Of a stretch of DNA of 33,755 nt, positions 2,302 through 8,173 are shown in pieces. The DNA comes from a virus (Duplodnaviria > Caudoviricetes). The translations under genes were made by a program, and so were the position numbers. Every line of letters starts with the position of its first letter. Position 1 is the stretch's first letter. Under the pieces are notes generated by a model, which searched no databases, was not told the DNA's origin, and saw only the letters and a program-made list of their open reading frames with translations. The DNA lies in the IMG/VR virus record IMGVR_UViG_3300016265_000851, positions 1 to 33,755 of that record; one strand, 5' to 3'.

Positions 2302-2541
2302 TTAAGGTACCAATAAAGATTGACGCATCTTTTTCATAGCTCTGCCAGCTTTGACGCCGTACCAGTAAACGCCAGATGCATGAAATGGGGGACAGGTAGC
2401 GCAGCGAAGAATCTCAATCTCTTTTGTGGGTTCACCCCATCGCTTTTGACAAGCCGGACATATGTGCCCATATGATTTTGGATCCTGTGGCCTTAAAATC
2501 ATTTTATCAACTTCAGCTTTTTTGCTCATACCTATTGCCAT
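2302..2541 (-). CDS. Small zinc-finger protein
   Basis: CPAC...CATC; GGAGG RBS upstream on the minus strand. Confidence 0.7.
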   Translation of the reverse strand: MAIGMSKKAEVDKMILRPQDPKSYGHICPACQKRWGEPTKEIEILRCATCPPFHASGVYWYGVKAGRAMKKMRQSLLVP

Positions 2542-2573: not shown

Positions 2574-2602
2574 TTTACTTCTCCAAATCAAATAAGTAAA
2601 CT
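2574..2602 (+). promoter_or_regulatory. Sigma70-like promoter for the candidate ncRNA, within an inverted repeat
   Basis: TTTACT(2574-2579)-N17-TAAACT(2597-2602); TTTACTT/AAGTAAA inverted repeat. Confidence 0.55.
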
Positions 2603-2608
2603 TCAAAA

Positions 2609-3120
2609 TAAGAATCAAAAAGACGCTACACCCAAGGTCTATAAACTGGGTGCAAAGTGATGCGAACGGACTTGCATCAGCGAAAGCTGTAAATTGCGAA
2701 GAGCAAAACAAGAGCTTTTGGTCAGTGATTAAGATAGCCTTCTGCTGGAGAGCATTAGGTGAAGGGGAATCAAAGACCAGAAAAATGCTAAGAGAAAAAA
2801 CTTAGCGACTCAATTATAAGCCTGCCAATGTTCAAGAGCAGGACTCCTGAGAGTAACGGTACTTGTACCGCCAGTAGCAGGAAGGTGAGCTTCACCGTAC
2901 TACGCCCAGAAATGGGACCCCCAGAAGCTCATAGGTGAAAGATTGAGAGCCACCTACGATTTACTTTGTATTGTTTGCTTGCCTGCCGGCGGCATAACGC
3001 TAGCTAAAGCTAGCTAAATACAAATATAGATCATGGTGCTTAGCTACCCTAGCCCAGTAATACAGGGAAACCTGTACTACCTACTCCCAGAGGAGTAGTA
3101 GGGGGAGAAGCTCTTGTATT
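2609..3120 (+). ncRNA. Candidate large structured non-coding RNA (~510 nt), family unassigned
   Basis: No ORF of 60 aa or more. About 15 helices by eye, three GAAA tetraloops on the + strand, closing helix 2708-2719/3106-3117, two pseudoknot pairings and an upstream promoter. Confidence 0.75.
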
Positions 3121-3142
3121 ATTTAAATATCAACCCAGTAGC

Positions 3143-3616
3143 TCAGTGTTGAATCTTGGTTTTATTTCCTTCGATCATACTCCAGAGAACATAAAGGCCA
3201 TGATCTTGAGTAATCTGTTTTGCTTTAGTGATTGTCATATCTCCAACCCACTGCACATGAGCCTTCTCCCAGCTAAGGGTCTCAAATCCGAAATCATGCA
3301 TGACCTGATGCACCTTGTCCCAGGGATCGTCTTTGTGCCAAGCCCACTGGCCGTTATGTTTAAAGCATAGATCTGCTGCAACTCCATATTGGTGCCAACT
3401 ATGCCATGGCCTAGCTTTTGTAATGATTTTGCCTTCTCTGCTTCGGCCTTGCTCAAATAAGTACCCTTGACGTTGCGGGGATCGATAGCCTTCAAAAAAA
3501 TATATCGGTAGCCCTTGATCCTGACATTCTTGTATAGCTTGCTGTAATAATTGAGAAAAAAAAGGTGCTAGATCCTGAAAATCTCTATTTATTTTTGTGT
3601 GATCATGTGTTATCAA
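3143..3616 (-). CDS. Endolysin, M15 family (L-Ala-D-Glu-type) peptidoglycan peptidase
   Basis: EGYRSPQRQ..L..QGR...SWHQYGVAAD...WEKAHVQ zinc-peptidase motifs; TTG start at 3616 with GGAGG at 3623-3627. Confidence 0.88.
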   Translation of the reverse strand: MITHDHTKINRDFQDLAPFFSQLLQQAIQECQDQGLPIYFFEGYRSPQRQGYLFEQGRSREGKIITKARPWHSWHQYGVAADLCFKHNGQWAWHKDDPWDKVHQVMHDFGFETLSWEKAHVQWVGDMTITKAKQITQDHGLYVLWSMIEGNKTKIQH

Positions 3617-3645
3617 TGCGCACCTCCAGCTACGAAAGGACTTAT

Positions 3646-3804
3646 ATGCTGCCAGCAACTGATTATAACCGCATCAACATCATTGTTCCTAAAAGTGAGA
3701 AAAAAAAGATCGTCGAATGGTGCAAAGAAAATCGCTATACCCTCACAATGGTTTTAAGACAGGCTTTAAAGGATTTTTTTAAAAAGCAGGGAATTAAACT
3801 ATGA
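3646..3804 (+). CDS. Ribbon-helix-helix (Arc/CopG-like) DNA-binding regulator
   Basis: RINIIVP strand followed by two amphipathic helices (KKKIVEWCKE, LTMVLRQALKDFF); ATG 3646 with AAGGA RBS. Confidence 0.75.
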   Translation: MLPATDYNRINIIVPKSEKKKIVEWCKENRYTLTMVLRQALKDFFKKQGIKL

Positions 3805-6968: not shown

Positions 6969-7169
6969 ATGCCTTGGCTGGTTTATCTCCCAACGATCCT
7001 TTCAGCTTTAGTTCAGTTAGCAAAACTTCTTGTAGATTTAGCCAAAGAAAAAAAACAAGACGATATAAAAGCTTGTGGCATAGCCATCGAAGAGGCTAGG
7101 CGATCTGGTGATGTGTCTAAACTAACAGAACTCATTGAAAAAATGAGGAAAGGACAATCATGCGAATAA
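6969..7169 (+). CDS. Small protein with N-terminal hydrophobic/amphipathic helix
   Basis: GAGGTG RBS; MPWLVYLPTILSALVQLAKLLV followed by a charged tail. Confidence 0.75.
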   Translation: MPWLVYLPTILSALVQLAKLLVDLAKEKKQDDIKACGIAIEEARRSGDVSKLTELIEKMRKGQSCE

Positions 7170-7945
7170 TTGAAGCTGTAGTTTATGCTTTTTTAATTTT
7201 TTGCATTTATACCACAGCCAAAGCTGAGACAGATGAGCCACAAGATAATGATTTTGATATGGCAGAAAAATATGGATACCTACCAGGAGATGTCTGGGAT
7301 GCCTATGAAGAAGCTAAGAAAAAAACAAACGTGGACAAATTTAATAAAGAAATAAAAATAAAACTACAAGGCACACAATTTGACAGAGCCGCTTTAATAG
7401 AAGAAACCTTAGACAATTTGATGGGCAAAATAACCGTAGTTTTGATGGCAGAAGGTCATGACAAGCTGGCCCAAGATATTGCTTATGAATATGAGCAATT
7501 TTATCAAAAAGCATTAACCAGACACCTACTAGGCTTTGATGAGATTGGCGACCACCCGCCTATGAATGAATGGCTGGATAATGTACATGAGCGCATCCAT
7601 GAAGCTCTTGGAGATTTTATCTGCCAGTATTTTAGATTTCATGATATTTATATTTTGAATCATGGAATACCTGTAGTATTTCGGCCAGCAGCTTATGATC
7701 TAAAAGACTACAAAGACCATTTCGCAGGCCATTTAATTTGGGGTTGGTACTGGGAGCATCATGGTGTGGCTGGCGTAGTAGCTTTTTGGTTAGTAGACGG
7801 TGCCTGTATTGCCGGAAGTTACGGGCTAGGAGTCATAACTTTCGTTTGTACACCGATCGCTACGCTTGCTCAAAATGTAATGGACAAGCACATTGCGCCG
7901 CCAATCGCTGAAAGAATCTGGCAAAGAGCGCAAGAGGATTATTAA
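7160..7945 (+). CDS. Exported protein with signal peptide and C-terminal hydrophobic hairpin
   Basis: Signal-like N-terminus ending AKA; Gly/Ala-rich hydrophobic segment with two Cys near the C-terminus. Confidence 0.75.
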   Translation: MRIIEAVVYAFLIFCIYTTAKAETDEPQDNDFDMAEKYGYLPGDVWDAYEEAKKKTNVDKFNKEIKIKLQGTQFDRAALIEETLDNLMGKITVVLMAEGHDKLAQDIAYEYEQFYQKALTRHLLGFDEIGDHPPMNEWLDNVHERIHEALGDFICQYFRFHDIYILNHGIPVVFRPAAYDLKDYKDHFAGHLIWGWYWEHHGVAGVVAFWLVDGACIAGSYGLGVITFVCTPIATLAQNVMDKHIAPPIAERIWQRAQEDY

Positions 7946-8173
7946 GGCTTCTCTGGCAGCCATGGCAACTGTTAACCCATGGCTTGTTAGCTTTACTCCC
8001 CGCCCAATCCTGATAACAATAGCAAAGCCTAAAAGCCTTCTCATTTTGCCTAACCTCTGGGTTATCGCTGGCTGAGTAAGGTTTAGCTTATCCCCAATTT
8101 CAGTGACCGATATCTCATCAATCAATAGGGATAAAATTATCAAATCATCAATATCTAGGCTTCTCAAAATCAT
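7826..8173 (-). CDS. Stand-alone LysR-type HTH DNA-binding domain protein
   Basis: LDIDDL...SVTEIGDKLNLTQPAITQRL..M...LG..IV.R.GRGVKLT.HG matches the LysR HTH_1 signature; no effector domain. Confidence 0.85.
   Translation of the reverse strand: MILRSLDIDDLIILSLLIDEISVTEIGDKLNLTQPAITQRLGKMRRLLGFAIVIRIGRGVKLTSHGLTVAMAAREALIILLRSLPDSFSDWRRNVLVHYILSKRSDRCTNESYDS

Follow-up and report, generated by a model that had tools for sequence, protein, structure and literature searches.

ColE1 is not known to need a plasmid-coded initiator. In this plasmid, a transcript initiated 555 bp upstream of the origin stays in a persistent hybrid; cleaved by RNase H, it serves as the primer for DNA polymerase I, as outlined in PMC4555960. 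According to the account in PMC4412123, a G stretch in the RNA and a C stretch in the template are essential for the persistent hybrid, and the displaced strand remains able to load helicase or primase when RNase H is missing; the same account describes oriF and oriG of phage T4, where replication starts at a promoter through an RNA-DNA hybrid that persists. Structured motifs in plasmid replication regions are reported under the names ARRPOF, GEBRO and PAGEV, the ARRPOF region being sufficient for Rep-independent replication (PMC5737381), and ROOL and GOLLD are described as pseudoknotted RNAs of large size with several junctions, which occur in phages and prophages (PMC12286853, PMC5737381). 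In the literature covered, with most subscription journals outside its scope, no description was found of the RNA reported here, nor any of a tailed phage with a ColE1-like preprimer; the candidates of 29-151 nt from IMG/VR presented in PMC10690425 could include pieces of this RNA.

Here, a predicted structured RNA of a tailed phage was analysed by computational comparison, the window being the whole stretch of DNA that was analysed (33,755 nt). The element resembles ColE1 RNA II in that a long transcript would start roughly 0.5 kb ahead of the putative origin, with a promoter match that is weak and bidirectional here, and in that none of the four lineages carrying it has a full-length initiator (0/4, in records that are 60-98% complete). 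It differs from RNA II in its location in a tailed phage, in its 5′ H-type pseudoknot, in one lineage that keeps its own DnaB, and in that no RNA I equivalent was found over the 5′ end; blastn against 72,556 plasmids returned nothing but short chance hits for the window and none for the distant homolog L002. Whereas oriF and oriG of T4 are described as a promoter plus a DNA unwinding element that use the T4 replisome, a large conserved fold is present here, and three of the four RNA-bearing lineages lack a phage helicase. The ARRPOF, GEBRO and PAGEV motifs are plasmid-borne and average 223-349 nt, and the element has no Rfam match. Unlike ROOL and GOLLD, which often lie near tRNA genes, the element occupies a replication-initiator slot in a window in which a scan found no tRNA gene. 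The same slot in sister phages holds an initiator with internal iterons, which we take to be of the lambda O type; such a protein-and-repeat origin is absent from the RNA-bearing records. HEARO and omega RNAs have a constant, co-oriented nuclease ORF beside the RNA; these classes were rejected for the element, with an HNH gene in one of the four lineages (151 aa, on the opposite strand) and no Rfam match.

The phage and the locus

The source is a linear virus record (88% complete), and the genes annotated in the window comprise terminase, major head, tail, RecT-like, SSB and endolysin genes. No cultured phage matched the window (blastn), the closest terminase matches were only about 26% identical with no near cultured relative, and the SSB search indicated no host. 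The finding is placed in a gene-free gap between two minus-strand genes, which are listed with all other features in Table 1. The GC skew tracks gene direction and points to no origin. One possible lead to the host, unless it is a binning artefact, is a 33.5-kb GTDB contig (L320): it encodes a phosphoesterase of 84% identity and has been assigned to an unclassified bacterial genome bin of 1.8 Mb. A 261-aa protein with a hydrophobic N-terminus is encoded at 7160-7945 (+); it recurs in relatives (48-74%) and matches no Pfam or PHROG family.

Table 1. Features of the RNA element and its flanks (window coordinates)
Feature	Position	Strand	Remarks
Promoter-like site	2574..2602	+	TTTACT, 17 nt, TAAACT; 8/12 to the sigma-70 consensus
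Small cysteine-rich ORF	2302..2541	-	bounds the slot on the left in relatives with the RNA and in those with an initiator; tblastn matches; Pfam sub-threshold only
Predicted structured noncoding RNA, ~510 nt	2609..3120	+	ends inferred from promoter and homology limit
5′ H-type pseudoknot	2619..2651	+	S1 2619-24/2637-42; S2 2630-34/2647-51
Three short hairpins	2659..2706	+	2659-78; 2679-88 (GAAA loop); 2694-2706 (five-base loop)
Long arm with internal loop	2717..2781	+	invariant GAAGGG 2761-66, predicted unpaired, loop-E-like by eye
Hairpin with 8-nt A-rich loop	2787..2806	+	stems differ yet fully paired, 8-nt loop, 5/5
Second long-range pairing	2809..2947	+	2809-15 with 2941-47; encloses hairpins 2821-42 and 2845-82, crosses hairpin 2932-56
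Two-partner strand	2887..3113	+	2887-93 with 2924-30 or 3107-13; C5 2918-22 complementary to G5 3101-05
Variable arm	2958..3032	+	base 2958-62/3028-32 contains the 3′ partner of the first proposed pairing; 2974-3060 replaced in two runs
3′ region	3061..3117	+	3′ hairpins, purine-rich G-run, closing stem with 2708-16
M15-type peptidase (endolysin)	3143..3658	-	bounds the slot on the right; convergent with the RNA; PHROGs endolysin, Pfam VanY

Folding strength, strand and homologs

Folding of positions 2600-3140 gave z-scores of -7.15 on the plus and -5.22 on the minus strand, and the plus strand folded as DNA was also strong (-5.29). The conserved helices are rich in G-U pairs when read as the plus strand; GNRA loops number three on the plus versus none on the minus strand in the window and in homolog L005, and none on either strand in L002 and L222. 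The many G-U pairs in the helices and the occurrence of GNRA loops on the plus strand only (window, L005) make this strand the likely RNA. The same two features, together with the loop-E-like motif assigned by eye and the promoter-like site upstream, fit an RNA better than a replication element acting as folded single-stranded DNA, in which helicase or primase would be loaded on the displaced plus strand and transcription would only open the duplex. Such a DNA element would account equally for the mutual exclusion with initiators reported below, it has the z-score of the DNA fold in its favour, and plasmid replication motifs are described as possibly acting in single-stranded form (PMC5737381); on balance we regard it as decidedly unlikely.

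In Rfam 15 no family reached the gathering score and only chance-level matches were obtained at E up to 10 for the window, with nothing meaningful in three homologs, and a stop-free stretch of more than 70 codons was found in none of the four homologs. Homolog L005 is 72% identical and the same RNA occurs in a second record, while L207 covers the 5′ half only at 90% identity. Two distant homologs, L002 and L222, are recovered by leave-one-out profiles at E-values of 5.9e-7 and 4.3e-8, the profile alignment spanning the 5′ two-thirds (L002) and the 5′ half (L222) of the model. The element adjoins the same small ORF in each of these four. Altogether, four diverged phage lineages carry the element with a length of about 380-510 nt, and eight public runs compared with it yielded further sequence variants. 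Two subtypes diverge widely in their 3′ halves; the lowest identity between the window and L005 (0.30) falls in the bin 3001-3050.

The homologs were sought by several pattern scans. One gave 2 true loci out of 24, both with the L005 sequence, and another gave 2 out of 2 in the same records; in a further scan, covering 31 of 64 parts, 3 of 120 were true homologs. An additional pattern scan contributed L207 only, and a metagenome pattern scan produced no convincing match among 30. With a mismatch pattern, which is blind to members with a different 5′ module, 49 of 103 other records were searched; G013 alone gave a true match, the matches in G024 being at chance level. Locus L174 was rejected as a homolog, as it matched the pseudoknot alone, at a contig end, and looks coding, and the strong folding of L248 and L294 was assigned to unrelated sequence. 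In L248 (8940-9140) long inverted repeats with GGTGA/TCACC units directly follow the primase gene; they are unrelated to this RNA and are probably the origin of that phage.

Predicted pairings and conserved structure

An earlier note on this DNA had proposed two long-range loop pairings between otherwise unpaired partners. For the first of them, between the loop at 2636-43 and the linker at 3025-32, the complementarity is present (8 pairs, one G-U), but the assumption of unpaired partners was wrong, the unpaired probability at 3027-3032 being at most 0.10. The downstream partner is not free because 3028-32 sits in a local helix with 2958-62, which is kept with changed sequence in L005. In shuffles of the 511-nt region, a mean of 5.9 long-range helices of at least 8 bp with at most one G-U was obtained versus 10 observed, and 5.3% of the shuffles offered a partner of this kind to the 8-mer itself; in each of the four homologs the loop 8-mer can form 7 or 8 consecutive pairs, counting G-U, at sites that are unrelated. 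Only 5 of the 8 pairs are kept in L005. In the public runs, 3026 is changed from A to C in 4 of 8, positions 2974-3060 are replaced by 86 other letters in 2 and the site is uncovered in 2, as counted among the variants listed, so that further compensating changes are possible. With the broken pairs in L005, the run variants, the local helix and the considerable role of chance, this pairing was rejected: its loss in the homologs, a refuting condition named in the earlier note, speaks against it, and a predicted local 5′ pseudoknot takes its place.

In this pseudoknot, stem S1 is fully paired (6 of 6) in the homologs L005, L207, L002 and L222 and lacks one of its six pairs in the window. Pair 2623-2638 varies between A-U, G-C and U-A, and stem S2 has all five pairs in all five sequences, in a pair table for which the best register was chosen among five loop lengths. 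The S1 mismatch of the window is repaired in run X9 and in L207, and also in X3, which breaks the end pair instead. A MAFFT-based count gave weaker figures (85.5% paired, a level reached by 20 of 500 shuffles, and a single double change, reached by 186 of 500) because the rows of L002 and L222 stand one base out of register.

The second proposed pairing fared better. Its seven pairs are present, including a G-U (U2815-G2941) that the earlier note did not mention, and all seven are kept in L005 with one double change from A-U to G-C. Across the five helices of this region, 98.3% of cells pair and five double-side changes are seen, a value reached by 11 of 500 shuffles; these statistics rest on two sequences (window and L005). 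The pairing linker lies two bases past the A-rich hairpin, and its equivalent pairs downstream in L002 (7/8) and L222 (8/8); between these two, the linker helix differs by four changed pairs or, in the MAFFT register, by a paired insertion and a wobble. An alternative partner in the long arm, with 8 pairs, is available to the linker in L005 and L002. The second pairing would be a pseudoknot only if hairpin 2932-56 forms simultaneously; L005 retains five of the six pairs of this hairpin, without any double change, and in L002 and L222 the linker helix can be nested.

Compensating changes extend to other parts of the fold. The 2659-2678 pair is G-C in the window and A-U in L005 and in run contigs, the pentaloop hairpin is present in all five sequences, three of the seven basal pairs of the long arm differ in L005 with pairing maintained, and the hairpin with the A-rich loop carries two double changes between the window and L005. 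The GAAGGG motif occurs in 5/5 sequences, with an unpaired probability of at least 0.92 at 2761-67 in the window. For the two-partner strand, both partners follow a one-base insertion in L005, where C5/G5 become C6/G6; the two states fold at -172.9 and -168.2 kcal/mol versus -174.8 kcal/mol without constraint, which suggests two folding states or a switch. The 3′ G-run has a length of 5 in the window and 6 in L005 and is GGG in L002 and L222.

Several small motifs were seen besides. An ATGG-hairpin-CCTAGC arrangement, which resembles a GAAA tetraloop receptor, is present at 3033-3053 of the window and at L002:4811-4829 and is not found in L005 or L222; GAAA loops close the window hairpins 2679-88 and 3061-76. 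The sequence GTAAGT occurs twice in L002 (4682 and 4850) and twice in L222 (3187 and 3296), with the two preceding bases co-varying between the lineages, and the 3′ copy might displace the first, in the manner of the two-partner strand of the window. The self-complementary AGCT recurs many times within 2683-3146 and stands in tandem at 2995-3018 in the variable arm.

The earlier note had read these pairings as a compact, long-range-paired RNA, in which it was right, and had further proposed a ribozyme or a multimer built by kissing contacts, for which no specific support was obtained: no Rfam family matches, and the ROOL and GOLLD models score nothing. A self-cleaving or splicing ribozyme is very improbable. 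In PMC5737381 demanding RNA functions are associated with a pattern that is also seen here, of several junctions between multiple stems, unpaired bases that do not vary and one or more well-supported pseudoknots; against this, neither a known ribozyme nor a self-splicing intron family was matched, whether at the gathering score or with E values up to 10, the element is intergenic and interrupts no gene, and the 3′ halves of the subtypes differ widely.

A free, abundant RNA of the ROOL/GOLLD kind, which would multimerise by kissing loops and A-minor contacts and whose position in the slot would be incidental, is unlikely in our judgement. The size and the location in a phage are similar, cages of ROOL and GOLLD are reported to be held by such contacts (PMC12286853), and the 8-nt A-rich loop (5/5) and the strand with two covarying partners could make intermolecular contacts. 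Nevertheless, GOLLD (RF02032) matched none of the four records at E up to 10, and neither did ROOL (RF03087), the latter result being weak because the ROOL positive control also matched nowhere; moreover, tRNA genes are missing from the window, no terminator sets a free 3′ end, and the exclusion with initiators is left unexplained. The genomic context points instead to replication initiation, which the earlier note had not considered.

Transcription signals

The arrangement TTTA(C/T)T-17-TAAAC(T/A) stands immediately upstream of the element in 5/5 sequences, and in L222 its -10 element lies only 2 nt before the pseudoknot. A strict promoter scan misses this site at 2574-2602, and a minus-strand promoter match overlaps it in 3 of 4; the site is thus a putative promoter by its sequence pattern, and it could also serve as a leftward promoter of the cysteine-rich ORF. 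The site also forms a 7-bp inverted repeat, which might be an operator; ORF 3565-3804 appears ribbon-helix-helix-like by eye without a Pfam hit, and 7826-8173 has an HTH_1 domain. No intrinsic terminator was found on the plus strand after the 3′ end in 4/4 sequences, and no antisense, RNA I-like minus-strand promoter was found at a shared internal position in the four homologs by a consensus scan, which may miss one. Two runs guessed to be RNA each contain one short contig within the element (2772-2921 and 2759-2917) at a depth of about 4, one of the two with a loose end, and speak neither for nor against expression.

RNA and initiator genes in the replication slot

Relatives of the phage were gathered via alignments of the phosphoesterase and RecT. 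Among RNA-less relatives that span the slot, DnaB was found in L213 and L217 and initiator-type proteins in L214, L217 and G015. A profile of the initiator matched 6 of 31 records (G004, G007, G009, G034, G015 and, weakly, G020) and none of the six RNA-bearing records. The RNA-bearing lineages G000, G053, G001 and G013, which are 88, 75, 60 and 98% complete, have no full-length initiator (0/4), and a phage DnaB is present in G013 only; 63 further small or unannotated ORFs, from 131 listed, included no initiator, primase or polymerase. All five RNA-less relatives spanning the slot (G004, G007, G009/G034, G015 and G011) carry a full-length initiator-like gene. The first four were called by the profile, which three of them had served to build, and by PHROGs names, and G011 by likeness in the Atlas; its initiator-like protein is a different one and is placed before DnaB. 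Arrays of iteron-like repeats (11-12 bp, 4-6 copies) lie inside the initiator gene in 4 of the 5, TRF finding no array in G011, and three RNA-bearing records are without an array of this type.

With G009 and G034 counted once and G006 left out, whose contig ends inside the slot, the exclusion between RNA and initiator amounts to 5/5 versus 0/4 (Fisher p 0.008, kinship ignored). The closest comparison is that of G053 with G004, which covers 71% of the window in blastn: the flanks of these two are 88% and 85% identical, and the RNA with an HNH gene is swapped for an initiator with repeats. The endolysin tree interleaves RNA and initiator states and rejects a single RNA clade (p-AU 5e-54); in the phosphoesterase tree a single RNA clade is not rejected (p-AU 0.17). 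A more distant record, G026 (98% complete), has no RNA, no profile hit and no DnaB; absence of this initiator thus does not require the RNA.

In G013 a 133-aa ORF (L222:5851-6252, minus strand) lies directly before DnaB. It shares a PHROG segment match with the C-terminal part of the G011 protein and resembles C-terminal domains of replication proteins (TM about 0.6); direct similarity to the G011 protein or to the initiator profile was not detected, and no longer relatives of it were found. It looks like an initiator without its N-terminal half.

The slot could instead be a general cargo site, a point against the origin reading given below. In a further explanation the RNA would travel as cargo, sometimes with an HNH gene, and act in regulation or anti-defence, as an antisense RNA of the leftward endolysin operon, a protein decoy or an antitoxin mimic. 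The element is antisense to leftward genes on both sides, the HNH gene adjoins it in G053 and its distribution is patchy, with a true match in 1 of 49 other records. Yet the downstream gene is different in every lineage, and cargo should occur in initiator-bearing genomes too, where it was seen in 0/5. Type III antitoxin RNAs consist of tandem pseudoknot repeats preceding a toxin gene; here a single pseudoknot without a tandem array was found, and no Rfam antitoxin family matched. We consider a cargo regulator of this kind quite unlikely.

A candidate RNA-based replication origin

At the level of sequence, the comparisons demonstrate conservation of structure, mutual exclusion with initiator genes and one clean module swap. 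Because it is conserved in four lineages with compensating changes and occupies the slot of the initiator gene, the element likely encodes a knotted RNA that serves the phage as replication origin and would open and prime the DNA instead of that protein. This reading, by which the RNA works in the manner of ColE1 RNA II through an R-loop and a primer, without being a member of the ColE1 family, has in our estimation about even chances. Parallels to RNA II are the length of the element, the promoter-like site some 510 nt before the 3′ end, the lack of a terminator and the conserved G-run, which is predicted to be free. Host RNA polymerase would start near 2609, and the RNA would fold while being made, forming the 5′ pseudoknot, the arms and the 2809/2941 pairing. 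Via the unpaired GAAGGG loop or the 3′ G-run, the folded RNA would stay hybridised to the C-rich template near 3100, where RNase H and DNA polymerase I would convert the hybrid RNA to a primer; alternatively, the displaced strand may load a helicase, either that of the host or the phage DnaB in G013. Weaknesses of the origin reading are that it draws on four lineages only, three of them with incomplete records, and on a weak promoter match; RecT/SSB-driven recombination could also make an origin unnecessary for the start of replication.

If the origin reading is true, lambda-like tailed phages can change from a protein initiator to an RNA initiator of the ColE1 kind, and a candidate function would be at hand for other large phage RNAs of unknown role. 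The G053/G004 pair is a natural matched comparison that makes this reading directly testable. Should it fail, a conserved pseudoknotted RNA family of about 400-510 nt outside Rfam 15 is still described.

Possible but doubtful is the related proposal that the RNA replaces the initiator in its task, the pseudoknotted transcript marking and opening the origin and delivering the helicase. The headless initiator and DnaB of G013 would then represent an intermediate, and the RNA would spread among tailed phages by swapping out the initiator gene, possibly aided by an HNH nuclease. The 151-aa HNH endonuclease gene (L005:3825-4280, minus strand) lies in the swapped block, convergent with the RNA, and is absent there in the other three lineages; its product could have mobilised the RNA module. 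In G013 a 10-bp array of 6.8 copies (L340:1667-1733) was observed near the contig start, far from the slot, and could be a packaging signal or a second origin signal.
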